From assembly GCA_035697325.1 (NCBI GenBank), contig DASSDB010000002.1:91232-155231 (forward strand): a stretch of 64,000 bases of DNA. Direction: 5' to 3'. The notes beneath the pieces were generated by a model. It saw only the letters and a list, made by a program, of their open reading frames with translations. It was not told where the DNA came from and did not search any database. Made by a program: the position numbers and the translations under genes. Shown in pieces: positions 37,546 to 62,805 of the stretch (positions are counted from its first letter, which is position 1; each line of letters starts with the position of its first letter). The stretch comes from Candidatus Saccharimonadales bacterium (lineage in GTDB: Bacteria; Patescibacteriota; Saccharimonadia; Saccharimonadales; Saccharimonadaceae).

Positions 37546-37634
37546 GGAGAGGTGCAGGAGTGGTTGAACTGGCCGCTCTCGAAAAGCGGTGAATCGCTAA
37601 GGTTCCGAGGGTTCGAATCCCTCTCTCTCCGCCA
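37546..37634 (+). tRNA. tRNA-Ser (anticodon CGA)
   Basis: Hand fold: GGAGAGG acceptor, anticodon loop CU-CGA-AA, long variable arm, GGTTCGAATCC T-loop, encoded CCA. Confidence 0.9.
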
Positions 37635-39680: not shown

Positions 39681-39773
39681 TGGCGGAGGAGAGGAGATTC
39701 GAACTCCTGCTACAGGTCTCCCCGTACTAACGATTTAGCAAACCGTCCCCTTCAGCCACTTGGGTACTCCTCC
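39681..39773 (-). tRNA. tRNA-Ser (anticodon GCT)
   Basis: Hand fold: GGAGGAG acceptor, loop UU-GCU-AA, long variable arm, encoded CCA. A terminator hairpin CACCATGT...ACATGGTG lies 3' of it. Confidence 0.88.
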
Positions 39774-39820: not shown

Positions 39821-39848
39821 TAGACTTTACCTCATTTTTTGCTATAAT
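39821..39848 (+). promoter_or_regulatory. Candidate promoter of pilin paralog P1 (leaderless)
   Basis: TAGACT-16 nt-TATAAT (39843-48). The ATG at 39856 is 7 nt after the -10 and has no SD. Confidence 0.4.
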
Positions 39849-39855
39849 TAAGACT

Positions 39856-40284
39856 ATGTGGTCTAAGCGCATAAAAACAATTCGCTTTTTGTTTTTGCTT
39901 GGCAGTCTCTTCCTTGCTATTGCTCTTTTGGCGGCTATTCCTAGCACTACTTTTGCTACTGGTTTTGACATGGGCATGCTTGATGGTGCTAACTCCGCCA
40001 GGGGCATCGACCAAGCCACGACACTGTTTGGCTCTACGGGTATTTTTACGACCATTAGCAATGTCATGCTATTTCTCGTAGGCGCCATTAGTGTGATCAT
40101 GGTTGTCATTGGTGGTATGCGCTATGTTATTTCCGGAGGAAATACAGCGAACGTCGGTGCAGCTAAAAACACCATTCTTTATGCTATTGTAGGGCTCGTG
40201 ATCTCTATTCTTGCCTATGCAGTTATTAATTTTGTTATCGGTAGTTTTGTTCCTGGTGGAGAAGTGAGCGGGACAAACGTATAG
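39856..40284 (+). CDS. VirB2/TrbC-like T4SS pilin-type protein, paralog P1
   Basis: Signal peptide (cleavage near TFA-TG), then two TM helices with the family motif AISVIMVVIGGMRYVISGGNTANVGAAKNTILYAIVGLVISILAYAVINFV. The internal ATG is preferred over the track start at 39787. Confidence 0.8.
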   Translation: MWSKRIKTIRFLFLLGSLFLAIALLAAIPSTTFATGFDMGMLDGANSARGIDQATTLFGSTGIFTTISNVMLFLVGAISVIMVVIGGMRYVISGGNTANVGAAKNTILYAIVGLVISILAYAVINFVIGSFVPGGEVSGTNV

Positions 40285-40301: not shown

Positions 40302-40332
40302 TGTATCGGATCCACGATACATTTGTTTTTTT
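40302..40332 (+). terminator. Intrinsic terminator after P1
   Basis: TGTATCG-GATCCA-CGATACA followed by TTTGTTTTTTT. Confidence 0.75.
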
Positions 40333-40887: not shown

Positions 40888-40930
40888 CCAAGAAAATAAG
40901 ATGATCCAAAAGATCATCTTATTTTCTTGG
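40888..40930. terminator. 19-bp perfect hairpin abutting the tRNA-Ser(TGA) 3' end
   Basis: CCAAGAAAATAAGATGATC-CAAAA-GATCATCTTATTTTCTTGG. It shares the outer 12 nt with the hairpin at 38120. Confidence 0.7.
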
Positions 40931-41017
40931 CGGAGAGAGTGGGATTCGAACCCACGGTGCCGTTGCCGGCACGACGGTTTTCAAGACCGTTACCTTCAAC
41001 CACTCGGTCATCTCTCC
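40928..41017 (-). tRNA. tRNA-Ser (anticodon TGA)
   Basis: Hand fold: GGAGAGA acceptor, loop CU-UGA-AA, long variable arm, encoded CCA. Confidence 0.9.
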
Positions 41018-42427: not shown

Positions 42428-42847
42428 CTAGGCGCCTGAACCGCTAGCCGAGAAGCTTGATACGACGAAATTGACCAACGCGTAAGCAAGAATTGATACG
42501 ACAATACCGATAACAGCGTAGAGAATCGTGTTCTTCGCGCTTGTTACCGCCGCCGAGTCACCATTTGACACGGTGTAGCGGATACCACCGATGATCAGCA
42601 TGATGACTGAAATCGCACCAATGATAAAGAGGAGCACGTTAGTAATGGTCTTAAAAATACCCTGGTCGCCGAATAGCTCGGCCTGCTGATCTTTACCTTT
42701 AGATGAATCTGCGCCATCCTGAAGACCTTTGTCGAATGCCGCATTTGCAGGGGTAGCCTGAAATACTGGGGCAACAAAGCTCACACCAAGCGCAAGTGCT
42801 GGTACGATCAATAAGCTTTGCAAACCTTTTTTGATTATACGTTTCAT
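42428..42847 (-). CDS. VirB2/TrbC-like pilin-type protein, paralog P2
   Basis: Signal peptide (ANA-AF) plus AISVIMLIIGGIRYTVSNGDSAAVTSAKNTILYAVIGIVVSILAYALVNFV. Confidence 0.8.
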   Translation of the reverse strand: MKRIIKKGLQSLLIVPALALGVSFVAPVFQATPANAAFDKGLQDGADSSKGKDQQAELFGDQGIFKTITNVLLFIIGAISVIMLIIGGIRYTVSNGDSAAVTSAKNTILYAVIGIVVSILAYALVNFVVSSFSASGSGA

Positions 42848-42920
42848 TGTTTATTCCTTTCTTAGGATTACTCTACCTTATGTTATATCAAACAGCCGTC
42901 GTTTTGTTAAGGCTTTAACC

Positions 42921-43283
42921 CTACTTAAATGATGTGACGACAAAGTTAACGATGGCATATGCCAAAATAGCAACGATCAGACCAATGACGGAATAAAGAA
43001 TGGTATCTTTGGCACCTTTAACTGCGCTTGTATCACCGTTTGAAGTCGCATAACGAATACCACCGATGACGATCATTATAACTGCGATTGCTCCGAGGAT
43101 GAAGAGAAGGATATTAACAACAGTCTTAAGGTTATCTTCTAGAGAAGTGCCGCCGTTACCACCCACGGCATTAACGCCACCCTGGATTTCGGATGCCGGG
43201 TCCGCATAGGTAAGCGATGGCATTAATACGATCGCACTGAGTGCCATAAATACCGTTACTATCGCGAGTTTGATTTTTTTCAT
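42921..43283 (-). CDS. VirB2/TrbC-like pilin-type protein, paralog P3
   Basis: Signal peptide (TYA-DP) plus AIAVIMIVIGGIRYATSNGDTSAVKGAKDTILYSVIGLIVAILAYAIVNFV. Confidence 0.8.
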   Translation of the reverse strand: MKKIKLAIVTVFMALSAIVLMPSLTYADPASEIQGGVNAVGGNGGTSLEDNLKTVVNILLFILGAIAVIMIVIGGIRYATSNGDTSAVKGAKDTILYSVIGLIVAILAYAIVNFVVTSFK

Positions 43284-43295
43284 AGTACCTCCTTT

Positions 43296-43676
43296 TTAAG
43301 CTCCGATAAATCTTCCTAATACGAAGTTGACAATAGCATACGACATAATTGCAATTACCAATCCGATAACCGAATAAAGAATCGTATCCTTTGCTTCCTT
43401 AACCTGGCTAGCATTTCCATTCGAAAGCGTGTAACGGATACCGCCCACGATAATCATAATCACCGCAATGATACCAACCACGAACAAAAGAATATTAATA
43501 ACAATGGTGATCATGTTCGTGGCGTTGTCGCCCTGAGCCTTACATACGGCAGCATCCGCATTTGAGGCACATTGGTCAAATACGTTTACCGCAGACGCCG
43601 AAGGGGTAAAAATAAATAATCCTCCGAGCCCTAGCGCCACCACGAATGCGCTTATAAGTTGTTTCCACTTTTTCAT
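43296..43676 (-). CDS. VirB2/TrbC-like pilin-type protein, paralog P4
   Basis: Signal peptide (ASA-VN), Cys pair in the mature N-terminus, IIAVIMIIVGGIRYTLSNGNASQVKEAKDTILYSVIGLVIAIMSYAIVNFV. Confidence 0.8.
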   Translation of the reverse strand: MKKWKQLISAFVVALGLGGLFIFTPSASAVNVFDQCASNADAAVCKAQGDNATNMITIVINILLFVVGIIAVIMIIVGGIRYTLSNGNASQVKEAKDTILYSVIGLVIAIMSYAIVNFVLGRFIGA

Positions 43677-43970
43677 TTAAAACCTCCCCAAGATAAATTG
43701 CGTAATAACGAATGCCATAATAATAACAACGAGTCCAACTACGGCATAAATGATCGCCTCACGAGCCCGCTTTGTATGTGATGGATTTGCCGTTGACGTC
43801 GTATAAAACAAGCCGGCGATAATAATAGCCAGCACACAAATAATACCCGCCCAGGTATATACCGTGGTTAGCACGGCACTCAGTGTCGCGTTCGGATCTG
43901 TCGCAGGGTTTTTAAGCCCAATTTCATCGGGTGTGATCTTATCGATTGCAAAAAGAAGAAATTGATTCAT
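43677..43970 (-). CDS. Divergent pilin-type paralog P5 without a recognisable signal peptide
   Basis: 97 aa. Keeps the two-TM core (GIICVLAIIIAGLFYTTSTANPSHTKRAREAIIYAVVGLVVIIMAFVITQF) but starts MNQFLLFAIDKITPDE. Abuts P4 and overlaps P6 by 1 nt. Confidence 0.7.
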   Translation of the reverse strand: MNQFLLFAIDKITPDEIGLKNPATDPNATLSAVLTTVYTWAGIICVLAIIIAGLFYTTSTANPSHTKRAREAIIYAVVGLVVIIMAFVITQFILGRF

Positions 43971-44392
43971 TACACAGCTCCCGCCACAATATTAACGATA
44001 GCTATTGAAAATATAGAGATTATCAAACCAATAACCGCGTTAAGAATGGTCTTGCGTGCCTTTACGATATCGTCGGGGCTACCCGTACTCGTAAGATACT
44101 TAAAACCACCCGCAATGATATAACCTACGGCGATATATCCGACAAGCTGGAGCATTACCTCAATAATATTAAGACCTATTTTTGCGATAAACGTCGGCAA
44201 TCCACCCACATCATTTGGATTTTTAATATCACAGCTATCGTTAATGATACCGCGATACCATGCCGGAAAGGTAAGAAGGCGATCGTTACAAGCTGCCATG
44301 GCCGGTTGTGGCGCAGCAATAGTAAGTGCTGTGCCCCCAAGACTTGCGGTAAATATAATTGCGGCTATCCAGTTACGAATTATCTTCTTCAT
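43970..44392 (-). CDS. Divergent pilin-type paralog P6
   Basis: Signal peptide (AMA-AC), Cys pair, core YIAVGYIIAGGFKYLTSTGSPDDIVKARKTILNAVIGLIISIFSIAIVNIV. Confidence 0.75.
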   Translation of the reverse strand: MKKIIRNWIAAIIFTASLGGTALTIAAPQPAMAACNDRLLTFPAWYRGIINDSCDIKNPNDVGGLPTFIAKIGLNIIEVMLQLVGYIAVGYIIAGGFKYLTSTGSPDDIVKARKTILNAVIGLIISIFSIAIVNIVAGAV

Positions 44393-44401
44393 ATATTCTC
44401 C

Positions 44402-44794
44402 TTATGCAAAAATGCCGCCAGGAATTAGGTAGTTCAGCACCAAATACATCAGGCCATAGGCGATTAACCCAATGACAACATTTCGAATAATCTCGATAGC
44501 TTTTTTGGTCTGTTCAGAGCTATCGCCGGCACTTGTGTAGAGGATAGAACCATATACAATACCGCCTACCGCAGCGATTCCTACGCCCGCCGTCATAATA
44601 TTAAGAACAATGAGCAAAACACCCCACACACCGTTTTCTTTAGCATTTGGCCCCGAGCTCGATTGGGGACAAGAAATGATAGCAGTTTGCGCACCGCCAC
44701 AACTCTCGGCCAATACAGCAGGTGCAGCAACGCCAGCCCCTACGAACGACGCGACAACGACAGCCAAACCAATGATTTTTTGTTTTATATTCAT
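44402..44794 (-). CDS. Divergent pilin-type paralog P7 (first gene of the array)
   Basis: Signal peptide (LAE-SC), Cys pair (SCGGAQTAIISC), core GIAAVGGIVYGSILYTSAGDSSEQTKKAIEIIRNVVIGLIAYGLMYLVLNYL. Confidence 0.7.
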   Translation of the reverse strand: MNIKQKIIGLAVVVASFVGAGVAAPAVLAESCGGAQTAIISCPQSSSGPNAKENGVWGVLLIVLNIMTAGVGIAAVGGIVYGSILYTSAGDSSEQTKKAIEIIRNVVIGLIAYGLMYLVLNYLIPGGIFA

Positions 44795-44891
44795 ACCTAC
44801 CTATAAAATACGATAAAAGCTCTGTAGGCGCAAGCAGAAACCACCGCGATTAACAGTATACTCACACCCTGTGTAAATGCAGTCCATTTGA

Positions 44892-44920
44892 TTGACTTTT
44901 TTGCCATAAAGTGGTAGCAT
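44892..44920 (+). promoter_or_regulatory. Candidate promoter of the VirB6-like gene
   Basis: TTGACT-17 nt-TAGCAT. ATG at 44931, 10 nt after the -10, no SD. Lies in the divergent spacer shared with the pilin array. Confidence 0.3.
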
Positions 44921-44930
44921 TAGCACTGAT

Positions 44931-47651
44931 ATGGTGGAATTGCGAAAAGCCTTTCTGCCCGGTAGTATATCGGGACGGAAAATTCTTTTGTTCGCCACAA
45001 GTATGCTCGTGGCCGTCTTCGCATTGCTTGGCATTTCTCCCACTGCCTACGCAGCCGACGCTACCTGGCAGGGCAATTCTATAACCTATGCCCAAAAGCA
45101 ATATATTAAAACCGGAAATGCCGGCAGCAATGACCCTCGCGGTTTTGCCAAAGACACTCAAATATATGCCTACGTGGAGCCCATTGTATCGGGTTCTTCA
45201 AACCCAACCCAAAAAGCTCACCTAATCTATTTTGCTCCAGGTACAGACCCTACCAAGGCAACGACGGCATCGTATGTCGTGTACGATTACACGCCGCCAG
45301 ACAGCTACACCAATCCCTCAGGGGCGACGCAGATCACCCTTGATCCTCAACCGGCAAATGCCAACGAAAACACTACCTCTTGTGCGCTAGAAGGTATTGG
45401 CTGGATTGTGTGTCCAGTCACTAAATTTTTGGCCGGGGCCATGGACTGGATGTATGGCATTCTCGCCAGCTTCCTTACCGTGCGTCCAGTACAAACGAGC
45501 CAAGATAATTCACTTTTCCGCATTTGGGCCGTTATGCGAAACTTTGCTAACATCGTCTTCGTTATCGGCTTCCTCGTTATTATTTATTCGCAAATAACCA
45601 ACGCCGGTATCTCTAATTATGGTATAAAACGTTTGCTCCCGCGCCTTATCGCGGCGGCAATTTTGGTGAATTTATCATACTGGATATGCGCCATCGCGAT
45701 CGACGTCTCAAATATCTTAGGTAATTCCATACAGGAATTGTTTATCAGCCTGCGTAATGTATTGGTGGGCCGAGAAGGGAACAACTGGGACATTATCAGC
45801 TGGGAGAGTATCTCCAGTTTCATTCTTTCTGGCGGAACAGCGGCCGTACTTGCGGGTATCGGAGCAAATATTTTACTCGGCGGTACGATTACCGGTTCGA
45901 TCTTCATGCTCGTGCCGGTACTAGTAACGGTGCTCGTAGCCGTGTTGGTGGCACTGCTGGTTATGGCGCTTCGCCAAGCGCTTATTACTATACTAGTGAT
46001 CGTATCGCCGCTGGCATTCGTAGCGTACTTGCTACCAAATACCGAGAAATACTTTGAAAAGTGGCGCGAGCTCTTCATGACAATGCTGCTGCTTTTTCCG
46101 ATCTTTTCGGTTATTTTTGGTGGATCACAGCTGGCGGGTATGGCAATTATACAAAATGCCAATTCGATCAACCTCATTCTCCTTGGTATGGCCGTACAAG
46201 TTGCTCCAATTATTATTACGCCTTTACTTATTAAGTTCAGCGGATCACTACTTGGCCGCTTTGCCGGCATGGTCAACAACCCAAACAAGGGACTTATCGA
46301 CCGCACTCGCAACTGGGCAAAGGATCGTGCCGAAAACCAAAAAGCTCGCGTACTTGCTGGCACACCGCGTGCCGGCTGGCGTGGAGCCGCCACCAGGCGC
46401 TCGCAAAACATTGAAACCAAGCGCCGCAAGCGCGAGGGCTGGCGCGCAGCCAATACCGCGCTGGCTGATGCTGCGTGGGCTAATAGCGAAGAATACTCAA
46501 AAATTCACCAGGCCAACCAACGTGCCGCACTTTCTAAAGAAGCAGGTGAAACAGCCGCGCAAGTACGCTTTGAAACCGCCAAAACAACCAATGCCGCGTT
46601 GCAGCACATGGACGTTGAGGCGCGAGCTGCTAAATTGAATTTGGATGTTACCAAGGCTAAAGTAGACGCCAATTGGCAAGAATTGATGGCGGGTAAGAGA
46701 ACTAATGAAAACCTCCTCGACTTAGAGGCGCTGAATCCGGCAGAAGTTTCTCGTCGAGGTATTGGCAACTACCAGGCCTATCGCAACAATATGGTTGAAG
46801 CTATCAAACAAGCCTCGATCGATAATAACCTTGAAAAGCGCCGTGCCCACTCCGCTGAACATGTACGTCAAGAAGATATGACGAAGCTCATGCTTTCAGA
46901 CAACTTAATACGTGAACGTGCTAAGGGTATTGATCCACACGGTGCCGATACAGCCCTAGCAAACGCCGTTGCCGAAGATCGAACTGCCTTTGGTAAATCT
47001 GTGGAAGAAGCAAAGCATGTATTGAAGCACTTTAACGTCAGCGCCGAAAAGCGAGCTGACCTCTTAAGAGGTGAGACTATTCACGTAACCGATAGCTCGG
47101 GACACCCGCGTGACTTCAGCCTTAAGGATACGTTCATTACCGAGGCTGCAATTGAAATCCAGATGAAGGAAGGAAGCTTTAGACAGAGGGAAGATATTAT
47201 TGCCGAATCTGGTAAAGGCGGCAAGCTATATGCTCACCGAACCACTATTGGTGATGAAGCTAAGGCGAACAAGATCGGCGAAATGGCCGCTTACTTTGGT
47301 GGTTCCGCTATCGACCGTATTAAACAGGGTGAAATTAAGGGTAATGCTGGAATCGACCTGAACATTGCGCACACCATCCGTAGCGGTAAGCTCAAGGCCG
47401 CCCACCTTGCCGATATGGATTGGGAAGCCGTCCAGCGAGTGGTTAAGGTTGCACGAGCTAATGCACCTGCTGAATTCAATGCTGCACAGGTGGCCGAATA
47501 CGAGCGAAACCGCGCTCAACTGGGCACACTGGCGAAGGAAGCACTCACGAACACCAGCCTTCGTGGCCGCGTGGCAAGGAACTCTCTAGAACACTTACAA
47601 AACCTTATACAAGACTTTCCTCCACCTCCAACACCGCCTAATAACCCTTAG
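44931..47651 (+). CDS. VirB6/TrbL-like polytopic T4SS channel protein with ~430-aa hydrophilic C-terminal tail (paralog 1)
   Basis: Signal peptide, ectodomain of about 120 aa ending in CALEGIGWIVCPV, then six or more TM helices (LFRIWAVMRNFANIVFVIGFLVIIYSQ..., RLLPRLIAAAILVNLSYWICAIAIDVSN...). A charged helical tail ends in PPPPTPPNNP. Confidence 0.75.
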   Translation: MVELRKAFLPGSISGRKILLFATSMLVAVFALLGISPTAYAADATWQGNSITYAQKQYIKTGNAGSNDPRGFAKDTQIYAYVEPIVSGSSNPTQKAHLIYFAPGTDPTKATTASYVVYDYTPPDSYTNPSGATQITLDPQPANANENTTSCALEGIGWIVCPVTKFLAGAMDWMYGILASFLTVRPVQTSQDNSLFRIWAVMRNFANIVFVIGFLVIIYSQITNAGISNYGIKRLLPRLIAAAILVNLSYWICAIAIDVSNILGNSIQELFISLRNVLVGREGNNWDIISWESISSFILSGGTAAVLAGIGANILLGGTITGSIFMLVPVLVTVLVAVLVALLVMALRQALITILVIVSPLAFVAYLLPNTEKYFEKWRELFMTMLLLFPIFSVIFGGSQLAGMAIIQNANSINLILLGMAVQVAPIIITPLLIKFSGSLLGRFAGMVNNPNKGLIDRTRNWAKDRAENQKARVLAGTPRAGWRGAATRRSQNIETKRRKREGWRAANTALADAAWANSEEYSKIHQANQRAALSKEAGETAAQVRFETAKTTNAALQHMDVEARAAKLNLDVTKAKVDANWQELMAGKRTNENLLDLEALNPAEVSRRGIGNYQAYRNNMVEAIKQASIDNNLEKRRAHSAEHVRQEDMTKLMLSDNLIRERAKGIDPHGADTALANAVAEDRTAFGKSVEEAKHVLKHFNVSAEKRADLLRGETIHVTDSSGHPRDFSLKDTFITEAAIEIQMKEGSFRQREDIIAESGKGGKLYAHRTTIGDEAKANKIGEMAAYFGGSAIDRIKQGEIKGNAGIDLNIAHTIRSGKLKAAHLADMDWEAVQRVVKVARANAPAEFNAAQVAEYERNRAQLGTLAKEALTNTSLRGRVARNSLEHLQNLIQDFPPPPTPPNNP

Positions 47652-48105: not shown

Positions 48106-48624
48106 ATGAGTTCTCTGGACGATTACTACGCGCGGCAAGATGGCGGTAAACAGGAGCGGGCCGACGATCTGCACATCCGGCAGTACAACCGCTGGGTCGA
48201 CATCGTGCTCGAGGCCGTGCGGGAGTTCGCCCGTGCGGCCCAGACCCGCCCGCCCGCAACCTGCGAGTGGGTGTACGAAAATGGGCAGCGCACGGCTTCG
48301 TGGGAGCTCCTCAAGGAATACGACGACACCTACCGCATCAACTTGATGCAGGACGGCCGACTCGTGTACGTCAAGGGGTCGTACTACTCACTGAAGCCGC
48401 CCCCAGAGGGTCACGTCACCAATGTGATCCATCTGCGCCACATCTCCCACCAGTCGGAAGAGCAGGCAGTGGGGGTGGGATGGAGTACGCTGAGCGATCT
48501 GTGCAGCAACATCGTCACCAGCGGTTACCTGCGATTCCACATGCCGTCGCCCAGCCATTTGCACGACGATCTCCTCACGCACTGGTCTCGTACTCACCCG
48601 GCCGACGATCAGTCGAAGCGGTAG
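48106..48624 (+). CDS. Hypothetical protein, 172 aa, GC-rich
   Basis: ATG after GAGGCGGTGAAG; followed by hairpin CCCGTCGCG/CGCGGCGGG (48643-48669). No family recognised. Line 48241-48300 is 41/60 GC. Confidence 0.55.
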   Translation: MSSLDDYYARQDGGKQERADDLHIRQYNRWVDIVLEAVREFARAAQTRPPATCEWVYENGQRTASWELLKEYDDTYRINLMQDGRLVYVKGSYYSLKPPPEGHVTNVIHLRHISHQSEEQAVGVGWSTLSDLCSNIVTSGYLRFHMPSPSHLHDDLLTHWSRTHPADDQSKR

Positions 48625-48722
48625 CACCCTGAATTGGACACCCGTCGCGTAGAAAAAACGCGGCGGGATTGTCCCTGAAGTTATTTCTCACCCCTGTATA
48701 CACTTTTGATGTTAATATACAT

Positions 48723-48738
48723 ACGCTATATGTAGTGT
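48723..48738 (+). promoter_or_regulatory. NrdR-box-like palindrome inside the T4SS-like locus
   Basis: ACGCTATATGTAGTGT; 15 of 16 nt are identical to the pyrG-proximal box. It lies 22 nt upstream of the -35 of the 48840 gene promoter. Confidence 0.35.
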
Positions 48739-48759
48739 ATTAAAAGTATTTAAAACCCC

Positions 48760-48788
48760 TTGCGTTTTTAAGGGTATTAATGTATAAT
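48760..48788 (+). promoter_or_regulatory. Candidate sigma-70-type promoter of the 48840 gene
   Basis: TTGCGT-17 nt-TATAAT. Confidence 0.5.
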
Positions 48789-48839
48789 ACAAAGGCAATA
48801 GGTTACTTATGCTGCGCGTTTCGCGCTAAGGAGCACAAA

Positions 48840-49778
48840 ATGACTATTGAAAACCCCCATGCAAATCGTCTTAACGAACAAGGGGGTGTCATGCCTCCTG
48901 AAGAAGTAGACCAATCTCGTGGTACTGGAGAGATTCCTTACCAACAAACTGTCCATAACAACCCCGACACTTATCATATTCCTCAAACAGAAGAGGAAGA
49001 GCCAGGATTCCTCAAACGCCATTGGGGTAAAGTAGCTCTTGCTACCGCTGGTGTTGTCGCAGCAGGTGCCTACTACTTAGGCAACGCCACCGCTAACGAT
49101 TCCGAACCCAAAAATATCCCAGACACCGGGTCACAGCCGGTTGCCACTGCTGAACAACACCCTGGTGGAAGCGCTCCAGCTACTTCAGCAGAAGCACCCG
49201 CCTCCAGCCCTGAAGCCAACCCTGCTGACACCGGAGTATCATTCGGCTCGCAGCACATGACCGTTGAAACAGCCAAAGCGACACTTTTTGAAGTTTCCGG
49301 AGCTAAAGCACCCTCGCCTAATGAAGCAGCTAAGCAATGGGCTGTCGCTCTTCAAAACGGTATGAAAATGAACGCAAGCCGCGAAGCGGTATCGCAAAAC
49401 GGTGGTGTTGAAGCAACCGAAAAAGCCAACCTCGATCTTCTTACCGGTGCAGATGGAATTCTGCTTGGTCTTGGAAAGGATCATAACAGTGTTACTGATG
49501 CCGGAGCCGACTTTATGCAGCCAGCAACGCTTGTATATGAAGCTAATAAGGCGAACGTTGAAAACGAAACATTCTCACGTGTATATCTCACCAACATGCG
49601 CGTTACTGGAAGCGAAAGTGGTGGCTACACCGTGCTTGGCGACCTTACTGTCACGACAATGCGCGGAGAAGAGCCGCTGAGCAGTAGGGGATACAAGGCT
49701 GAGATCCACCAAAAGCTCGACCCCCAGACCAACAAGTGGGATTACACAGGTTCTCACGTTCTCAAAGATAACGGCTAA
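48840..49778 (+). CDS. Bitopic membrane protein (cytoplasmic N-terminus, one TM helix, ~230-aa external domain)
   Basis: ATG at 48840 follows AAGGAG (the track start at 48780 lies inside the promoter). TM helix WGKVALATAGVVAAGAYYLG. The beta-rich C-terminus is a possible VirB8-type candidate (speculative). Confidence 0.65.
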   Translation: MTIENPHANRLNEQGGVMPPEEVDQSRGTGEIPYQQTVHNNPDTYHIPQTEEEEPGFLKRHWGKVALATAGVVAAGAYYLGNATANDSEPKNIPDTGSQPVATAEQHPGGSAPATSAEAPASSPEANPADTGVSFGSQHMTVETAKATLFEVSGAKAPSPNEAAKQWAVALQNGMKMNASREAVSQNGGVEATEKANLDLLTGADGILLGLGKDHNSVTDAGADFMQPATLVYEANKANVENETFSRVYLTNMRVTGSESGGYTVLGDLTVTTMRGEEPLSSRGYKAEIHQKLDPQTNKWDYTGSHVLKDNG

Positions 49779-49794
49779 GCCTCTTACTTAACTA

Positions 49795-51798
49795 TTGTTT
49801 CAAACTGCTATCGGTTTTATACTGATAGCAGTTATGTTTATGTGGCGTGATTTATTTTCTAACATAAGACGTCGAGTTCTTGTTTTAGCTGCCGTGCCGC
49901 TTTTGTCGCTCCTTAGCCTTTACACGCCATTTTTTGCAAATTCCGCCTATGCCGTTACGGCAGATGATGTCCTTAACCGCGCTCGTGCGTGGTCAATTTT
50001 GCAGGCGGTGATTGATAAGGCAAGTCTTCTTGATTCAAGTATTAGTAACGAAGACGCCAGCAACTGTCATATTTTTGGTGGTTCAGACAATGATGCGGTG
50101 TATGTTGGCCACTGGGCGACAGGTGATAACGATGATAACGGCACCGTTTACTCCAACGGAGGATCGTGGGACGCACTCGAAAACAGAGTGGATCTTGCTA
50201 ATAATGCACTGGCTTCTGTGGGAATTCAGGGTGGCTGCCGAGGTTTGCTTGAAAAACTAGGCTACACCTCTAGCGGCGGCGACATGAATCAGCCAAAGGA
50301 TTATAGTAATGGCGATGGCGAGGTCCGCGATAAACTCCAAGCTGCTCTTAAGGCTGATGCATTTTTTGGCAGACGGCTAAGCGATGGTTCACCTGGTGAC
50401 GCAATTTCTTATGCAATGCTTTATTATGCGCTCACTAACGTATGCGGTTGGGCATATCGAAATCCTTTTGTACCCAACGATACATCACCGGGAGACGACG
50501 GAAGTAGAAACCGCGAAGCTCAAAACAACGGCTGGAGCGGTGATAGCCGTAACAGTCATTTTCATACATATACATATGAAAACGGTAAGGCAGGCGAGAA
50601 TACATACTACAAAGGCGGAGGCCGCGAAGATGATATCCGTGTCGGCTCAAAAACCGGGTTTGCCAACTCTGGGAATAACGATGCTATCACCGACTGTGGC
50701 GACAATAACGCCGATACAATTGGAGCAAAGCTAGGAGATAACCCCCGTTTTGCAGATGCGTACGCGGCGCTTTTGAAGCCAGGCGGTCAATATACTCCAG
50801 GAACGTGTGGTGAAAAGTATCCGGCAGCCGGTACAGACGCAGAAGTCCAGCGAGCAAACGCTCTTCGAGCGGCTTGTGACGACGGTTTCAAAAATAAAAC
50901 GGCTGGATATTGTGACAAATATAATAGCGATAAAGGCCTAAAAGACGCCTGTTTATACGGGCAACAGACCGCCACGGGTCTCTCCACAGATACGACGCCT
51001 GCCCAAGAAAAAGATCCTACTAAAAAAGAAGATAAAACCACGTGTGCCATCCCCGGTATCGGCTGGATCGTCTGCCCAATACTGAATTTGCTTGCGCAAT
51101 TGGTAGATGGCGCATATAGTTTTGTTGCGGCTCTGCTTAAGGTACAGCCAGTTGTGATGGATACTAACTCCGGATTGTTCAAGGCGTGGTCGGTTATGCG
51201 AAACTTCGCCAATATTGCCTTTGTTATTGCCTTCTTGTTTATTATCTTTTCACAGGTGACCAGCTTTGGTATATCTAATTATGGTATTAAACGAATGCTG
51301 CCGCGGCTTATTATTGCGGCGATATTGGTCAATGTATCTTTCTGGATATGTTCGCTTGCTGTCGACCTTTCGAACATTGGTGGCGCATCGCTTAAATCTC
51401 TCTTTGATGGCATCGGGCAGGGATTAAGTCTTCCGAATACCGACAATGGATTCAACTCCGGTACTCAATGGCAGGGAATCGTTGGTGGACTACTTGGTGG
51501 TACCGTCCTTGTTGGAGCGGCTCTGTATATTGGGCTTTCGGCACTTATTCCGGTGATACTCGCTTGTCTTATCGCTATTTTGGCTGTATTCCTCGTATTA
51601 GTTATTCGCCAGGCATTGATTGTGCTATTAATCGTTATATCACCACTGGCGTTCGTGGCGTACTTACTACCTAATACCGAATCATTATTTACAAGATGGC
51701 GGAAACTATTTACGACTCTCCTTATCCTTTATCCTGTGGTATCGATCATATTTGGCGCTTCGGCTCTGGCGTCTAAAATCGTCATGGGAGGAAGCTAG
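49795..51798 (+). CDS. VirB6/TrbL-like polytopic protein, paralog 2, TM part (ends at an in-frame TAG)
   Basis: Signal peptide, a roughly 370-aa Cys/Gly/Asp/Asn-rich ectodomain ending in CAIPGIGWIVCPI, then TM helices colinear with paralog 1 (LFKAWSVMRNFANIAFVIAFLFIIFSQ..., RMLPRLIIAAILVNVSFWICSLAVDLSN...). Alternative start ATG at 49834. Confidence 0.75.
   Translation: MFQTAIGFILIAVMFMWRDLFSNIRRRVLVLAAVPLLSLLSLYTPFFANSAYAVTADDVLNRARAWSILQAVIDKASLLDSSISNEDASNCHIFGGSDNDAVYVGHWATGDNDDNGTVYSNGGSWDALENRVDLANNALASVGIQGGCRGLLEKLGYTSSGGDMNQPKDYSNGDGEVRDKLQAALKADAFFGRRLSDGSPGDAISYAMLYYALTNVCGWAYRNPFVPNDTSPGDDGSRNREAQNNGWSGDSRNSHFHTYTYENGKAGENTYYKGGGREDDIRVGSKTGFANSGNNDAITDCGDNNADTIGAKLGDNPRFADAYAALLKPGGQYTPGTCGEKYPAAGTDAEVQRANALRAACDDGFKNKTAGYCDKYNSDKGLKDACLYGQQTATGLSTDTTPAQEKDPTKKEDKTTCAIPGIGWIVCPILNLLAQLVDGAYSFVAALLKVQPVVMDTNSGLFKAWSVMRNFANIAFVIAFLFIIFSQVTSFGISNYGIKRMLPRLIIAAILVNVSFWICSLAVDLSNIGGASLKSLFDGIGQGLSLPNTDNGFNSGTQWQGIVGGLLGGTVLVGAALYIGLSALIPVILACLIAILAVFLVLVIRQALIVLLIVISPLAFVAYLLPNTESLFTRWRKLFTTLLILYPVVSIIFGASALASKIVMGGS
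49803..49833 (+). other. 12-bp hairpin ending at the first ATG of VirB6-like paralog 2
   Basis: AACTGCTATCGG-TTTTATA-CTGATAGCAGTT (one G-U pair); ATG at 49834. Confidence 0.5.
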
Positions 51799-51801
51799 CA
51801 T

Positions 51802-52869
51802 ATGAATGGTGTCGTAAAATGGGTACAAACGGTGATGGGCGCCGGTATTGGTATTATTCCTTTGTTTTTAACCTACATGCTTGTCATGGCTACTTTAAAG
51901 GGCCTGGGAGCTATTGGTGGCGCGGTTTTAAGCGCTAGCGACAGAAGCCAAAAGGCAGGAAAGAATTTTGCGCAGGGTATTCGTGATGACCGCAAGAACA
52001 TACGTCGCCGCAATGAACTTGAGGGTAGGGGGATGGTAGGTCGTCGCGCTATTACACAATGGGGTGCGAGGCGCGCTGCCAAACGGGCTAGTAATGAAAC
52101 AGGTGCTAAGCGTGCTGAAACAGAATACGTTGCCGATACAGCCGTAAGTAATGATGCATTTGCAAGTGCGCTGGCTGGTGGCGACGAAGCTCGTAAAGCA
52201 GGTGTGGTGGCTGCCGCTGTTAACCAGCAAAAGAAGGCTTTTCAGGAAGATGTCAGTGACATGGAAGCACTTATTAAAATCAAGTTCGACAATGACCCGG
52301 AGAAGGCTCTTAAGGACGCCATAGAGAGCGGCAACAAGGCACAGGCTGTTGCTGCCCAAAATATGCTGTTTGCTAAGGGCGGTTCGGGTGTTAGTAAATT
52401 CCGTGAAATTGTAGAAGAAAGTGAGAAAACCACAGAAGGTCAGCAAAAGCTCGACAATGTTTCAGGTAGTTTGCGCGAAAACCTTCAGGAACGCCATGGT
52501 AAGCAGGCCAAAGACAAAGGCGCCGACCTCGTTACATGGGCAGGTAAAGGCGGCAAGCTCACTGACGCAAAGGCGGGAGCAATGTCCGACAACGATTTGG
52601 CCGGTCAGCATGCTGCGAGTATCGAAAAGATGGTCAATCAAGGAGGTGTTATTTCTGGCGATCAAGCGCGACGCGTCCTCTCTGATCCACGAGTGAGTGC
52701 CAACCTTAACGATGACCAGAAAAAACAACTTGTTCGTGCAGCCGGCGGAGACCTTCGCCCAGCACCGACCGATAAGGAGCTTACTATCGCTCATGAAGAA
52801 GCTGATGTTCAAAATAAACTCCATGACATGGAGAACAACAATCCGTCGGAACCACGGCAAGGTCCATAA
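51802..52869 (+). CDS. Continuation of VirB6-like paralog 2: last TM segments plus hydrophilic tail
   Basis: Same reading frame as 49795-51798, separated only by TAG-CAT. Aligns with the last TM region and the tail start of paralog 1. GGAGG lies 10 nt upstream of its ATG. Confidence 0.7.
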   Translation: MNGVVKWVQTVMGAGIGIIPLFLTYMLVMATLKGLGAIGGAVLSASDRSQKAGKNFAQGIRDDRKNIRRRNELEGRGMVGRRAITQWGARRAAKRASNETGAKRAETEYVADTAVSNDAFASALAGGDEARKAGVVAAAVNQQKKAFQEDVSDMEALIKIKFDNDPEKALKDAIESGNKAQAVAAQNMLFAKGGSGVSKFREIVEESEKTTEGQQKLDNVSGSLRENLQERHGKQAKDKGADLVTWAGKGGKLTDAKAGAMSDNDLAGQHAASIEKMVNQGGVISGDQARRVLSDPRVSANLNDDQKKQLVRAAGGDLRPAPTDKELTIAHEEADVQNKLHDMENNNPSEPRQGP

Positions 52870-52890: not shown

Positions 52891-53916
52891 ATGGCAGTAT
52901 ACAAAGTACCTCAGGATGTTGAAGCCGATGACAAGTTGATCGGTCCATTTAGCTTTCGCCAGTTTATCTATATTATTATTGCGATTATTGCTATCGGTCT
53001 TGCCTGGGGACTTGCTCAAATATTTGTAGGGCTAGCCTTAATACCACTACCTTTAGTAGTACTTTTTGGTGCGCTCGCGCTGCCGCTTCGTAAAGACCAG
53101 CCCATGGAAATATATCTCGCAGCGGTAGTGTCATTTCACTTAAAACCCCGCAAACGCCTTTGGCTCCCGGATGGGATTCAATCACTGGTAGAGATTACGG
53201 CACCTAAAGTTGTTGAAATTCAACGTACAAAGGATTTATCTCAGTCTGAAGCCGAACAAAGGCTCTCTTACCTTGCAAATATCGTTGACACTGGCGGCTG
53301 GGCTGTGAGGGGAGTAAGTACCCCAACTCCTGATAGCGCTATGCAAAACGACGTTTACTACGCCGCTCAGCAAACAGAAGATGTTCTCGATACGAATAGT
53401 GGCGTCGCCCAGTCTTTCAATACAATGATCAACCAAGCGGAAGTTGAGCGGAGAGAAGAAATGATTGCCCACATGAAAGAGGAGCCAAAGACGACAGCTA
53501 TCGTCCCTCAGGTGCCTGATCCATATGCAAGCCTGGCGCCCTCGGCACCTTCCCAACAGACAATGCCAACCGCCTCAACGCCTGTGACGGATGATCCGCA
53601 CCTTACGTATAATCCGTATCCAAATAGTATTCACCAGACGGTTATCAACCCCCTAGGAAGCACTCCTCGGTCCGTGCAAGCACCAATATCCGCTCCATCG
53701 ACAGCTGCCGCTCCACCGTCTGTGCCGACGGCAGTACCCGCGCCCGTGCAAACTGCGCAAACAAACACTAGCGAAGCGGTAGTGTCACCTGATATAATAA
53801 ACCTTGCAAATAACTCTGATTTATCTATCGAGACGATTGCGCACGAAGCCAACCGTATTCACGAGAAGGAAGAGCAAAAACTTCCCGACGATGAAGTGGT
53901 CATTTCATTGCGATAA
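52891..53916 (+). CDS. PrgI/VirB3-like protein with a long Pro/Ser/Thr/Ala-rich C-terminal extension
   Basis: N-terminus MAVYKVPQDVEADDKLIGPFSFRQFIYIIIAIIAIGLAWG plus a second TM helix matches the PrgI-family layout of Gram-positive T4SSs. About 240 further residues are partly low complexity. Confidence 0.65.
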   Translation: MAVYKVPQDVEADDKLIGPFSFRQFIYIIIAIIAIGLAWGLAQIFVGLALIPLPLVVLFGALALPLRKDQPMEIYLAAVVSFHLKPRKRLWLPDGIQSLVEITAPKVVEIQRTKDLSQSEAEQRLSYLANIVDTGGWAVRGVSTPTPDSAMQNDVYYAAQQTEDVLDTNSGVAQSFNTMINQAEVERREEMIAHMKEEPKTTAIVPQVPDPYASLAPSAPSQQTMPTASTPVTDDPHLTYNPYPNSIHQTVINPLGSTPRSVQAPISAPSTAAAPPSVPTAVPAPVQTAQTNTSEAVVSPDIINLANNSDLSIETIAHEANRIHEKEEQKLPDDEVVISLR

Positions 53917-53950: not shown

Positions 53951-54835
53951 GTGCCGCCAAATAATCAACAACCTCTACAACCAACCCCAGGGTCTGCTCC
54001 GAATATTCAGCAGCCTGTTCCTGCCGCCCCTCAAGTCCCCCTGCCACCCCAGCCTCAACAGCAGCCAAACGCCGTTGGGTCGGGTCAACAAGCTCAGCAG
54101 GCTAAAAAACCAGCAAACCCTAATACAACCCAAAATAGTCTTTTGATTTCTGAAATACGGGAAGGGATGGCGATTATGAGCGACGGCAGTTTTCGTGCGG
54201 TCGTGGCCTGTAAATCTATTAACTTCGACCTTATGAGCTCTCGCGAGCGGGAAGGTGTTGAGTATAGCTACCAGAACTTCCTTAACGCACTGTATTTTCC
54301 AGTACAGATCTTCATTCGCTCACAGCGTGTCGATATTGGTCCGTATCTTGATCGGCTTGCCAATATCCGCCGATCTCAAGATAATATGCTTCTGAATGTA
54401 CTAATGGATGATTATATCAATTTCATCGATGTGCTTTCGCAGGAAGCAAATATTATGGATAAGAGCTTTTTTATTGTTATTCCATACTATCCGACGGGCG
54501 ATCTTAATAATGTTGTTGAACAAAGTAAAGGCTTCTTTAGTAAGATCTTCGCCAAGGCTCCTACAACTGCGACCAAAATTGATAAGGTCGCCTACGACAA
54601 GGCGAAGGATGAGATCAAAAACCGTGTTGATTCTGTAATGAGCGGTTTGTTCCAGATTGGCATTAAGAGCGTTCAACTTAATACCAAGGAACTCGGTGAA
54701 CTTTATTACAATATGTACAACCCCGATACAGCCGTACGGGAACCACTTGGTGATTTTGAGAACGTAACAAGCATGTACGTTGCCAAGGGCCAGGGAGAAG
54801 CTCCTCGTCCACACCTGCAAGAAGGGGGTATGTAG
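53951..54835 (+). CDS. VirB4 N-terminal domain-like protein (separate ORF) with Pro/Gln-rich N-terminus
   Basis: LLISEIREGMAIMSDGSFRAVVACKSINFDLMSSREREGVEYSYQNFLNAL...ELGELYYNMYNP resembles the extreme N-terminal region of Gram-positive VirB4 ATPases (Orf16/TcpF/PrgJ type). Assignment from memory. Confidence 0.55.
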   Translation: MPPNNQQPLQPTPGSAPNIQQPVPAAPQVPLPPQPQQQPNAVGSGQQAQQAKKPANPNTTQNSLLISEIREGMAIMSDGSFRAVVACKSINFDLMSSREREGVEYSYQNFLNALYFPVQIFIRSQRVDIGPYLDRLANIRRSQDNMLLNVLMDDYINFIDVLSQEANIMDKSFFIVIPYYPTGDLNNVVEQSKGFFSKIFAKAPTTATKIDKVAYDKAKDEIKNRVDSVMSGLFQIGIKSVQLNTKELGELYYNMYNPDTAVREPLGDFENVTSMYVAKGQGEAPRPHLQEGGM

Positions 54836-54837
54836 AA

Positions 54838-56739
54838 ATGGCCAAGAAAAAACTTGATCCAATTGACATTGCTGCTCAGCAGCGCGCCCGCGAACAAGCC
54901 GAGGTAGAACAAGCGTTCTTAAAAGGAATGACGACGCTTCGTGACCTCATTGCGCCAAGTAGCATTGAAATTCACTCCAGTCACTTTAGGCTCGGGACGA
55001 AATATGGTCGTACGCTATATATTTATGGGTATCCGCGCCAGATCTACACGGGTTGGCTGAGCTCACTTATTAATATCGATGAAGTACTCGACATCAGTAT
55101 GTTTATTTATCCGGTTGAAAGCCAGGTGGTACTTAATAATCTTCGCAAAAAGGTGACTCAGCTTGAAGCAACCATGTCCATCAACAGTGAAAAGGGAAGA
55201 ACTCGTGATCCAGGGCTTGAGGCAGCCTTGCAAGATGCCGAGGAACTACGCGATCAGTTACAAGTGGGTGCCGAACGCTTTTTCCGCTATGGCCTGTATG
55301 TCACCTTATACGCCGATAGCATGGACGAGCTGAGCTTTGTACAGCACAAAATTGAAACGATATTCGGTCAGCAGTTGATCTTCAGCAAAGTCGCTTCCTC
55401 ACAGCAGGAGCAAGGGTTAAATAGTACGATTCCTCAGATGACCGACCAATTGCAAATTCGGCGCAATATGAACACCGGCGCAATCAGTACTAGCTTCCCA
55501 TTCACAAGTGCTGATCTAACCCAAGAAAAGGGCGTATTATACGGTATAAACATGCACAACAACGGATTGGTTATTTTTGATCGGTTCTCTCTTGAAAATG
55601 CCAATATGGTAGTGTTTGCAAAATCTGGTGCCGGTAAGTCGTTCACTGTAAAGCTTGAGGCACTTCGCAGCATGATGGTTGGCTGCGACGTGATTATCAT
55701 CGACCCTGAAAACGAATATCAAAAGCTCTCTGATGCGGTAGGGGGAAGTTATATTCGTCTTAGCCTTAGCGCGGATACACGTATTAATCCATTTGATCTT
55801 CCTAGGGTTATCGACAGTGATGAAGCAGATGATGCGCTTCGCGCCAACCTTGTGACACTTCACGGCTTGTTCCGGCTGATGCTGGGAGGAACGCAATCAA
55901 CCGCGAATGGGCAGATTATGTCTGCCCTCACGCCAGCCGAAGAGGCCGACCTTGATCAAGCTCTTATCGATACGTACGCGCGTGCCGGTATTACCAGTGA
56001 CCCGCTTACGCATCACTCAAAGCCCCCTACAATCGCCGACTTATACGACACACTGCTCCATATGGGCGGCACTGGCCCAGCGCTGGCGCAACGCTTGCGC
56101 AAGTATACCAGTGGAACCTTCGCCGGTATTTTCAGCCAGCAGTCAAACATCGACATCAACAACAATATGGTCGTCTTCAACATCCGTGACCTTGAAGATG
56201 AACTTCGTCCAGTAGCTATGTATATCGTACTATCGCACATTTGGAATATTACCAGGACCGACCAGCGAAAGCGCATGCTTATCGTGGACGAGGCGTGGCA
56301 GCTCATGAAATACGATGACTCTGCAAACTTCCTCTTTAGCCTCGCTAAGCGTGCTCGTAAATATTACCTTGGACTTACAACTATTACGCAGGACGTTGAG
56401 GACTTTATGGGAAGTAAAATGGGACGTGCGATTGTCGCCAACTCCTCTATGCAACTTCTCTTGAAGCAATCATCGAGTGCCGTTGATGTGCTTTCCGACG
56501 TCTTTAAGTTAACAGAGGAAGAGCGCAAACGTCTCGCTAACTTTCCGGTTGGACAAGGTTTATTCTTTGCCGGTCAAAACCATGTTCACATTCAAATCGT
56601 CGCCAGCCAAACCGAGACGGGACTTATTACCACTAATCCAGCGGCGGCGCAGCCTCAGGCGCCACAACCCCCACAGCAGAATCCCGGTGAGCCGATGGCA
56701 ACCAACGGCTACATGAATCCTGGCGAATTCAGCGTATAA
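54838..56739 (+). CDS. virB4: VirB4-family T4SS ATPase (main body)
   Basis: LRDLIAPSSIEIHSSHFRLGTKYGRTLYIYGYPRQIYTGWLSSL, Walker A FAKSGAGKSF, Walker B RMLIVDEAWQL. ATG 9 nt after AGGGGG. Confidence 0.88.
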   Translation: MAKKKLDPIDIAAQQRAREQAEVEQAFLKGMTTLRDLIAPSSIEIHSSHFRLGTKYGRTLYIYGYPRQIYTGWLSSLINIDEVLDISMFIYPVESQVVLNNLRKKVTQLEATMSINSEKGRTRDPGLEAALQDAEELRDQLQVGAERFFRYGLYVTLYADSMDELSFVQHKIETIFGQQLIFSKVASSQQEQGLNSTIPQMTDQLQIRRNMNTGAISTSFPFTSADLTQEKGVLYGINMHNNGLVIFDRFSLENANMVVFAKSGAGKSFTVKLEALRSMMVGCDVIIIDPENEYQKLSDAVGGSYIRLSLSADTRINPFDLPRVIDSDEADDALRANLVTLHGLFRLMLGGTQSTANGQIMSALTPAEEADLDQALIDTYARAGITSDPLTHHSKPPTIADLYDTLLHMGGTGPALAQRLRKYTSGTFAGIFSQQSNIDINNNMVVFNIRDLEDELRPVAMYIVLSHIWNITRTDQRKRMLIVDEAWQLMKYDDSANFLFSLAKRARKYYLGLTTITQDVEDFMGSKMGRAIVANSSMQLLLKQSSSAVDVLSDVFKLTEEERKRLANFPVGQGLFFAGQNHVHIQIVASQTETGLITTNPAAAQPQAPQPPQQNPGEPMATNGYMNPGEFSV

Positions 56740-61129: not shown

Positions 61130-61759
61130 ATGAACAAAAGAATTATCATCACAATAGTAATCGTCGTGGCACTTCTTATTGCTGCTGCCAGTGTCACTTT
61201 TTATCTGCTTTCTTTTCGAAACGTGACCTTCACATTCAAAAAAACGGACCTTACGGCGAATATTTATCGTTCGGACGATACGGATAAAAAAAATAAGCTC
61301 GCCGATGTAAAAAATAATGAAACCATACGGCTCCAAGAAGGTAATTACGCAGCCTTCGCTTCGGGCGATAATTACGACCGAGCAGCGGTTTACTTTTCCG
61401 TTAACAAGGGAGATGCAACCGTCACTATTGACCCGAGCTATTCGGATACGTATCTGAAACGCGCACTTACGGGAGAACTGCCGGCCATAAAGGCCGCACT
61501 CATCAAAGCATTTCCTTTTGTTGCGACATCATTCGATATAAATGATGGCAAGCTCTACAAGGAAGGGGAGTGGTATGCCACAGCCCTCACGCAACGTCCT
61601 GCCGACCCACGCGACGAAGGCGACGTTTACTACACAATACTAAAAAAAGAAAACGATACGTGGACAGTCATCGGAAAGCCTAGCCTTGTGCTTACAACTG
61701 TCGACTTCAAAGATGTCCCTGCCGACATCATCAAGGACGCCAATCATATTGGTGAATAG
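61130..61759 (+). CDS. Bitopic membrane protein, unknown function
   Basis: N-terminal TM helix IIITIVIVVALLIAAASVTFYLL plus a roughly 180-aa external domain. Last gene of the plus-strand block. Confidence 0.65.
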   Translation: MNKRIIITIVIVVALLIAAASVTFYLLSFRNVTFTFKKTDLTANIYRSDDTDKKNKLADVKNNETIRLQEGNYAAFASGDNYDRAAVYFSVNKGDATVTIDPSYSDTYLKRALTGELPAIKAALIKAFPFVATSFDINDGKLYKEGEWYATALTQRPADPRDEGDVYYTILKKENDTWTVIGKPSLVLTTVDFKDVPADIIKDANHIGE

Positions 61760-62804: not shown

Positions 62805-62805
62805 T

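Follow-up and report, generated by a model that had tools for sequence, protein, structure and literature searches.

How many different pilins does a type IV secretion system (T4SS) use, and why would a genome maintain several that barely resemble one another? This question is raised by a 64,000-nt stretch of DNA from a Candidatus Saccharimonadales bacterium (contig DASSDB010000002.1; the whole stretch is hereafter called the window), in which six small pilin-type genes, P7 to P2, lie in tandem next to T4SS genes and a seventh, P1, stands apart on the other strand (Table 1). The first-pass annotation had offered two readings of this locus, a filament composed of several pilins or a choice of antigenically or host-specifically distinct surfaces. 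Our analysis favours a jointly acting set, because the paralogs are ancient, their order is fixed and the counterparts of all six were depleted in transposon insertion sequencing (Tn-seq) of Southlakia (PMC10633639); alternative surfaces fit poorly, as lineage-specific turnover was not seen. We consider it fairly probable that all six arrayed paralogs are needed together as parts of a single extracellular structure associated with the T4SS, a pilus or conduit, with P2 supplying its bulk.

We recovered the seven open reading frames (ORFs) as first annotated, with a shared architecture of signal peptide, two-helix hairpin and connecting loop from which only P5 departs (ORF list, alignment and hydropathy). 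P1 to P6 matched the Pfam family PF18895 (T4SS_pilin) with 31.8, 37.1, 47.0, 37.7, 37.5 and 29.9 bits, respectively, all above the gathering score of 26.6 bits. P7 scored 26.1 bits, 0.5 bit short of that threshold; a database protein identical to P7 carries a precomputed match to the family (PF18895.6), and 582 homologs of P7 are present in the database. P1 is a 100% match to its database protein, and P1, P6 and P7 all match one Candidatus Saccharimonadales metagenome-assembled genome (MAG). A profile of the seven paralogs, searched against the window's ORFs of at least 50 amino acids, returned exactly P1 to P7, and no eighth copy was found among them. The paralogs are 22 to 52% identical to P1, with P1 and P2 sharing 52% in the alignment. 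P5 was the sole paralog above the curated cut-off (40 bits) of NF045849, the Mbov_0395 family of pilin-like conjugal transfer proteins, with 53.5 bits; P4 (39.3), P3 (35.6), P6 (30.4), P2 (23.9), P1 (18.3) and P7 (16.4) stayed below it. Matches to PF04956 (TrbC/VirB2) were significant for P3 (26.5 bits, E = 7.6e-6), P4 (25.2 bits) and P5 (20.7 bits), all under the cut-off of 27.9 bits, and the Pfam search gave no PF04956 match for P1, P2, P6 or P7. A tblastn search of P3 against 72,556 plasmids gave no match. The PF18895 matches and the adjoining T4SS genes bear out the pilin-type identity assigned at first pass. By sequence, the proteins belong in PF18895, and P5 also in NF045849; the PF04956 matches under the cut-off, published fold matches and the T4SS context lead us to call them VirB2-like, but not demonstrated members of the VirB2 family.

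The evidence that each copy has its own role comes from related genomes. We gathered 80 loci through an alignment of homologs of the VirB6-like protein encoded next to the array, taken from assemblies representing one genome per species. Pilin-profile matches were present in 30 of these loci, 26 of which, plus the window, contained the complete six-gene run; a single extra copy accompanied the run in 19 loci plus the window. Orthogroups and promoters were tallied over 26 loci, with the window counted among them. The order P7-P6-P5-P4-P3-P2 was invariable across the 26 loci, and the best match in another genome belonged to the same positional group in 175 of 176 cases. Identity was 43 to 62% within orthogroups (highest for P2 and P1) and 27 to 55% between them, and the VirB6-like proteins of the compared species were 33 to 77% identical. 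Orthologs of P3 were found in 26 loci and those of P1 in 20 of 26. P2 had the top within-orthogroup identity (62%) and was 92% identical to its ortholog in L001, the closest relative fetched, whose VirB6-like protein is 77% identical to that of the window. Between the window and L001, the proportion of nonsynonymous differences (pN) was 0.055 to 0.17 and that of synonymous differences (pS) 0.61 to 0.78 for every paralog; synonymous sites are saturated (pS about 0.7 to 0.78), so we used only the qualitative result that pN << pS and no ratios. Since pN lies far below a saturated pS, all seven paralogs are under purifying selection. In the 26 loci with a complete array, all ORFs are intact. The alignment and dN/dS-type check suggested at first pass thus returned one-to-one orthologs in 20 to 26 species, and not decaying copies. 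The duplications are older than the clade and each copy has been retained for a role of its own. One-to-one orthology, fixed order and selection are the opposite of the trace that recent antigenic diversification or decay would leave.

Features particular to single paralogs were conserved as well. Every ortholog of P4, P6 and P7 contained at least two Cys (26 loci for P4 and P6), and invariant residues of P7 among 92 sequences were C32, C42, W57, G77-G78 and the C-terminal P125-G126-G127-x-F129. The 18 aligned P5 orthologs were 94 to 99 amino acids long, lacked a signal peptide without exception and all matched NF045849 at E <= 0.001. The N-terminal mature segments were less conserved than the hairpin core (24 to 48% versus 51 to 73% identity), with their length kept. 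About 40% of P2 and P3 orthologs contained two Cys, though the window's P2 and P3 have none, which indicates that the disulfide feature has been gained or lost inside orthogroups.

The closest published system is that of Candidatus Southlakia epibionticum ML1, in which six small genes, SEML1_0014 to 0019, diverge from the VirB6-like gene SEML1_0013 (Wang et al. 2023, Cell; PMC10633639). According to Table S1 of that study, these genes measure 399, 558, 312, 381, 384 and 417 bp, and beyond them lie Hsp20, ComFC, tRNA-Ser, a hypothetical gene and a seventh pilin, SEML1_0024 (435 bp). The Tn-seq data in the same table gave each of SEML1_0014 to 0019 11 to 15 insertions in the input and 0 to 2 after outgrowth, with the call GD/ES/ES, and SEML1_0019 kept none. 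SEML1_0024 had 19 insertions in the input and 22 to 23 after outgrowth (about 1,200 to 1,400 normalised reads), with the call NE (PMC10633639). The entries of Table S2 available to us give PF18895 for the SEML1 pilins and TrbC/VirB2-family fold matches for SEML1_0018 and 0019; in that table, the fold of SEML1_0013 matched TrbL/VirB6.

By position and synteny, the window's pilin genes have their counterparts in SEML1_0014 to 0019 and SEML1_0024. P2 corresponds to SEML1_0019, P1 to SEML1_0024, whose N-terminal segment is almost the same as that of P2, the VirB6-like protein to SEML1_0013, the VirB4-like ATPase to SEML1_0008 (KEGG K12063) and the cell-wall hydrolase to SEML1_0006. Both organisms have six tandem PF18895 genes of similar lengths diverging from a VirB6-like gene, a longer gap ahead of the last array gene (83 nt before SEML1_0019, 73 nt in the window), Hsp20, ComFC, tRNA-Ser and a seventh pilin on one side and the T4SS, recF and dnaN on the other. 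Synteny between window positions 30000-64000 and SEML1_0001 to 0048 runs through TsaD, FemAB, ValRS, RlmH, tRNA-Ser, pilin, ComFC, Hsp20, the pilin array, the T4SS, recF and dnaN. The species differ, that of the window being uncultured; P6 measures 423 bp against 558 bp for its Southlakia equivalent, and the two genomes do not agree in the size or strand of the gene that separates tRNA-Ser from the seventh pilin.

The first-pass annotation read P7 to P3 as tightly packed, with gaps of -1 to 12 nt, and P2 as following after 73 nt. The gap sizes were as described (9, -1, 0, 12 and 73 nt from P7 to P2), but the last spacer also holds a conserved promoter of the extended -10 type. The P3-P2 gap measured 58 to 90 nt in 26 of 26 loci, compared with median gaps of -1 to +12 nt at the other four junctions, and in 25 of the 26 loci it contained a -35 hexamer (TTAACA in 23), exactly 17 nt and the motif TGnTATA[AT]N. 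In the alignment of related loci (window and L001 to L075), a ribosome-binding site AAGAAAGGAA is conserved behind the promoter within a block TCCT..AAGAAAGGAA, in which TCCT could pair with that site, and the spacer (window positions 42848-42920) is otherwise variable. The promoters of P2 and P7 were missed by a consensus scan with fixed rules, in the case of P2 because its -10 hexamer ends in C, and were both revealed by cross-species alignment. Ahead of P7, a block CTTGC[GAT], 17 nt, GTA[TC]TTT was present in 16 of 26 loci. The window is one of the 16, and its site scored under the threshold of the consensus scan. Through its internal promoter, P2 would gain extra transcription and may be the most abundant subunit. 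The claim that P1 has its own promoter and terminator held, as both a promoter-like site and a terminator-like hairpin flank the gene. The -10 hexamers end 7 nt before the ATG of P1 and 10 nt before that of P7, which suggests leaderless or near-leaderless mRNAs; that of P1 is probably leaderless. The P1 leader is longer in other loci and has an AAAGGA ribosome-binding site there.

The alignment confirmed a loop GG(I/M)RY...AK(N/D)TILY in P1 to P4 and diverged versions in P5 (AGLFY), P6 (GGFKY) and P7 (GSILY), as first noted. The ending of helix 2, which had been given as VNFV for all seven, is literally so only in P2 to P4, with INFV in P1, TQFI in P5, VNIV in P6 and LNYL in P7. Hydropathy profiles contained three hydrophobic segments (signal peptide and two helices) in six paralogs and two in P5, in line with the earlier statement that P5 has no signal peptide; the two helices are hydrophobic in every paralog (H = 2.0 to 3.3). 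P1 and the five arrayed copies with cleavable signal peptides carry exposed N-terminal segments of 23 to 38 residues. Within these mature segments P4, P6 and P7 have two Cys each and P1 to P3 none, again as first described, and the single Cys of P5 sits within helix 1. P1 and P2 have a nearly identical N-terminal motif. AlphaFold2 (AF2) models from family alignments placed a signal-peptide helix before two long helices, at residues 64-92 and 98-136 in P2 and 55-88 and 93-123 in P7, with a predicted local distance difference test (pLDDT) score of 82 to 96 across the hairpin (above 90 for the two helices of P2) and low values across the N-terminal segment. These models, together with hydropathy, answer the topology check proposed at first pass with two-helix hairpins; they are compatible with a VirB2-type hairpin, a shape that is itself unspecific. 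The inter-helix loop is positively charged, and P5 has an acidic N-terminal tail of only 30 residues. Under the positive-inside rule, these features predict that all seven paralogs should share one topology, with the N-terminus outside, the loop inside and the C-terminus outside.

We propose a model in which a single operon, divergent to the VirB6-like gene, would encode six ancient, non-interchangeable VirB2-like hairpin proteins. Five of the six would be exported by Sec and cut after AxA-type sites, and P5 would be inserted without a signal peptide, so that every paralog would end with its N-terminus outside, its basic loop inside and two helices in the membrane. A VirB4-powered machine would extract the hairpins from the membrane on a VirB6-like platform and build from them one extracellular pilus or conduit that crosses the wall in the direction of the host bacterium. 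P2 would be the bulk, or major, subunit: no other copy is as well conserved, a conserved promoter precedes it within the array, and a strong terminator comes after it. P3 to P7 would take on specialised tasks at low copy number, in the base, in initiation or at the tip, with the exposed segments of P4, P6 and P7 stabilised by disulfides, and P1 would be a dispensable spare that resembles P2 and is transcribed separately. That a filament forms, that the paralogs co-assemble and which role each of them takes are what we infer from these features. A stricter version seems to us conceivable though doubtful: an obligate heteromeric pilus or conduit with a P2 shaft, in which a fixed complex of P3 to P7, for the base, initiation or tip, would replace the missing VirB5, with a division into major and minor subunits inside the VirB2 family. 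We know of no T4SS with such a division.

Several observations weigh against a jointly built extracellular structure. Filaments have not been observed for the T4SS of any Patescibacteria, and reviews treat them as a possibility (PMC12857230). The case for P2 as the major subunit is made from promoter and conservation arguments. A sequence-profile search of the Protein Data Bank (PDB) with the seven-paralog alignment gave 0 matches at E <= 10, and a Foldseek search of the PDB with the P2 model returned generic helical hairpins (best E = 2.8, none at E <= 0.001); as a helical hairpin is generic, the latter speaks neither for nor against a pilin fold. In hhalign, two pilin alignments (A3 and A1) reached probabilities of only 0.4 to 2.9% against a VirB2 profile, which is narrow and a weak test, being built from 5 sequences annotated on Ti/Ri-type plasmids: a query 100% identical over residues 1-120 to the 'pilin major subunit VirB2' of NC_002377.1, and four annotated homologs. 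The Tn-seq depletion at the equivalents of P7 to P4 could partly reflect polarity on downstream genes; the putative extra transcription of P2 weakens a purely polar account of the insertion loss just upstream of its Southlakia equivalent. Finally, the layout is clade specific: 50 of the 80 VirB6-like loci (within L010 to L080) lacked a pilin-profile match at up to 10 kb from the VirB6-like gene when an iterated profile was searched at E <= 10, so an array beside virB6 is specific to one Saccharimonadales clade. In L020, L060, L071, L073, L075 and L078, the array lies 4 to 7 kb from the VirB6-like gene, with insertions between.

Some of these points would sit well with hairpins that never form a filament and are membrane-embedded parts of the T4SS channel or platform, such as a short stalk or a lining around VirB6, 'pilin' then describing a distant resemblance. 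We judge this unlikely, though it would account for the absence of an observed pilus (PMC12857230), the lack of a significant sequence or structure match to solved pilins, the high hydrophobicity of every copy and the form of P5, a minimal hairpin without signal peptide whose nearest family is a membrane protein of a Mycoplasma integrative and conjugative element (ICE). It is harder to reconcile with the cleavable signal peptides and exposed segments of P1 and five arrayed copies, with the conserved Cys pairs in three of those segments, which suggest structured, exposed, extracytoplasmic parts, and with PrgF of pCF10, a monoderm VirB2-like protein that acts in labelling as a lumen-forming pilus subunit. 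The paralogs might instead be alternative surface variants, deployed one at a time or per host for antigenic variation or host range, as proposed in PMC12102498 with the VirB2 paralogs of Bartonella and Anaplasma as precedent. The exposed segments are indeed the least conserved part, and the P1 equivalent is dispensable in Southlakia. We nevertheless find this improbable, given one-to-one orthology and fixed order among genomes whose VirB6-like proteins are only 33 to 77% identical, purifying selection on every copy, depletion of all six arrayed genes in a co-culture of Southlakia with a single host, and tightly coupled junctions with no sign of independent switching; with N-terminal motifs nearly the same in P1 and P2, the dispensable copy is not even a distinct one. 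A recent expansion for antigenic variation was rejected on the same grounds of fixed one-to-one orthologs and purifying selection.

Delivery of the paralogs to the host as small Sec-secreted effectors, after the label 'putative effector genes' given to the TM7x array, is very hard to credit. Six of the seven carry signal peptides, and the TM7x papers treat adjoining small genes as putative effectors (PMC10768705); two strongly hydrophobic helices behind the signal peptide, membership in a pilin family by hidden Markov model (HMM) and a conserved core with a variable N-terminus all point the other way, and we rejected this reading. The notion that a single copy functions and the others are decaying duplicates has next to no credence left: nothing was found in its favour, and it is refuted by one-to-one orthology and purifying selection, with intact ORFs in the 26 complete-array loci, pN << pS throughout, invariant paralog-specific residues and depletion in the Southlakia Tn-seq.

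The jointly acting set can be compared with better-known systems. Type IV pili and type II secretion pseudopili combine an abundant shaft subunit with several low-copy, individually required paralogs that are encoded together. This is an analogy only, as their fold is unrelated and their assembly uses PilB/PilC, where a VirB4/VirB6 machine would act here. PrgF of pCF10 is VirB2-like, encoded near virB6, essential and modelled as a pilus on a VirB6 pentamer, and in labelling experiments it behaves as a lumen-forming pilus subunit (bioRxiv 10.64898/2025.12.18.695078). Like the window pilins, PrgF of the Enterococcus plasmid pCF10, as well as similar proteins of Gram-positive conjugative plasmids, is a small two-helix protein encoded near virB6 in a monoderm-type T4SS; such systems have one functional copy and serve DNA conjugation, whereas the type seen in the window has six, which are required in Southlakia. 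The NF045849 proteins resemble P5 as minimal hairpins without signal peptide (the model has 80 residues), but they occur in single copy on a mobile element, the Mycoplasma ICE, and P5 is one of a chromosomal set of six.

The premise of the first-pass annotation that a canonical T4SS encodes one major pilin has exceptions. Bartonella species and Anaplasma phagocytophilum have tandem, diverged VirB2 paralogs beside the T4SS, as far as they are cited in PMC12102498, and that survey (Quinonero-Coronel et al. 2025) lists 441 arrays of 2 to 11 pilin genes in 383 Patescibacteria assemblies, most abundant in Saccharimonadia and Microgenomatia, with a within-array identity of 25% on average and 54% at most. 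The Bartonella and Anaplasma genes share with the window the tandem setting beside a T4SS and a host-dependent bacterium, but their copies are read as variable or differentially expressed surfaces, and those of the window are ancient, order-fixed and under purifying selection, and their Southlakia counterparts in the array are jointly essential; lineage-specific expansion or turnover with interchangeable copies, as in those two, was not found in the window array. The surveyed arrays are like that of the window in number, divergence, low within-array identity and prevalence in Saccharimonadia. Their authors proposed antigenic variation or host adaptation and host-range versatility (PMC12102498) and stressed variability; here the paralogs of the clade proved stable, as one-to-one orthologs in an unchanging order. 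The array, its essentiality and both speculations are thus already in the literature (PMC10633639, PMC12102498, PMC12857230), contrary to the novelty that the first-pass annotation implied. With layout, essentiality and readings in print, novelty is low, and the window holds a known system in another genome. What is new here is modest: strict one-to-one orthology with fixed order across species, the conserved internal promoter of P2, and P5 as the signal-peptide-less copy closest to a monoderm ICE hairpin family.

Table 1. Pilin-type genes, transcription signals and neighbouring T4SS genes, in window coordinates
Feature	Position	Strand	Details
P1 pilin paralog	39856-40284	+	142 aa; VFH06_01095; separate, monocistronic, P2-like
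P2 pilin paralog	42428-42847	-	139 aa; final gene of the array
P3 pilin paralog	42921-43283	-	120 aa
P4 pilin paralog	43296-43676	-	126 aa; N-terminal Cys pair
P5 minimal pilin-like hairpin	43677-43970	-	97 aa; no signal peptide
P6 pilin paralog	43970-44392	-	140 aa; VFH06_01140; Cys pair and conserved PAWY segment
P7 pilin paralog	44402-44794	-	130 aa; VFH06_01145; opening gene of the array, most diverged
VirB6-like polytopic membrane protein	44931-47651	+	906 aa; VFH06_01150; divergent from the array
PrgI family (VirB3-like) protein	52891-53916	+	PF12666, E = 1.4e-12
VirB4-like ATPase	54838-56739	+	PF19044, E = 1.7e-27; also AAA_10 and DUF87
Cell-wall hydrolase (VirB1-like role)	59301-60491	+	PF18013 Phage_lysozyme2, E = 3.2e-31
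P1 promoter-like site	39821-39848	+	TAGACT, 16 nt, TATAAT with TG; motif kept in many related loci
P1 terminator-like hairpin	40302-40321	+	T run behind the hairpin
Array-closing terminator hairpin after P2	42375-42415	-	minimum free energy -24.5 kcal/mol, z = -5.36; U-rich tail
Internal P2 promoter	42882-42910	-	-35 TTAACA 42910-42905, 17 nt, TGn 42890-42888, -10 TATAAC 42887-42882
P7 upstream promoter-like site (putative function)	44805-44833	-	TTGCGC, 17 nt, TATTTT
Divergent promoter-like site of the VirB6-like gene	44892-44920	+	TTGACT, 17 nt, TAGCAT with TG; block conserved in alignment

Next to the array, the VirB6-like protein is 100% identical to an NCBI protein of the same MAG, encoded on a 583-kb contig, and has 3940 homologs. 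The family PF19590 (VirB6-like) is precomputed on homologs that include the identical protein, and our hmmscan against Pfam, run to E <= 1, did not reproduce it. The C-terminal half of the protein is long and hydrophilic, with a proline-rich tail at its end. The PrgI, VirB4-like and lysozyme genes lie at most 16 kb from the array, on the opposite strand. Seven sizeable ORFs of the T4SS cluster (48106-52869, 53951-54835, 56752-59304 and 61130-61759) had no Pfam match at E <= 0.1, and relaxing the threshold to E <= 1 for the remaining ORFs of the cluster gave nothing usable; by position, the seven correspond to SEML1_0005, 0007, 0009, 0011 and 0012. No match to coupling-protein or relaxase Pfam families was found among the T4SS-cluster ORFs scanned. 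Directly adjoining the cluster on the minus strand, at 61761-63909, are recF (SMC_N/AAA_23) and dnaN (three DNA_pol3_beta domains), which places the system near the origin; the same holds for Southlakia and has been noted for Patescibacteria (PMC12102498). The other flank of the array contains Hsp20, a ComF-type phosphoribosyltransferase, tRNA-Ser genes, RlmH and ValRS. With these neighbours on its two sides, the T4SS is an origin-proximal, chromosomal system of monoderm (Gram-positive) type, and not part of a mobile element. The window has four tRNA-Ser genes (13690-13779, 37546-37634, 39681-39773 and 40928-41017, with anticodons GGA, CGA, GCT and TGA), three of which cluster within 3.5 kb around P1.

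Few machines have been shown to be essential to Saccharibacteria living as epibionts, and the T4SS, whose role is unknown, is one of them (PMC11665869). A fixed, ancient and jointly maintained set of hairpins, with a promoter of its own for P2 and a spare copy in P1, narrows the hypotheses on this T4SS: P2 is a candidate for the shaft subunit, and the Cys-pair segments of P4, P6 and P7 are candidates for exposed or contact surfaces.

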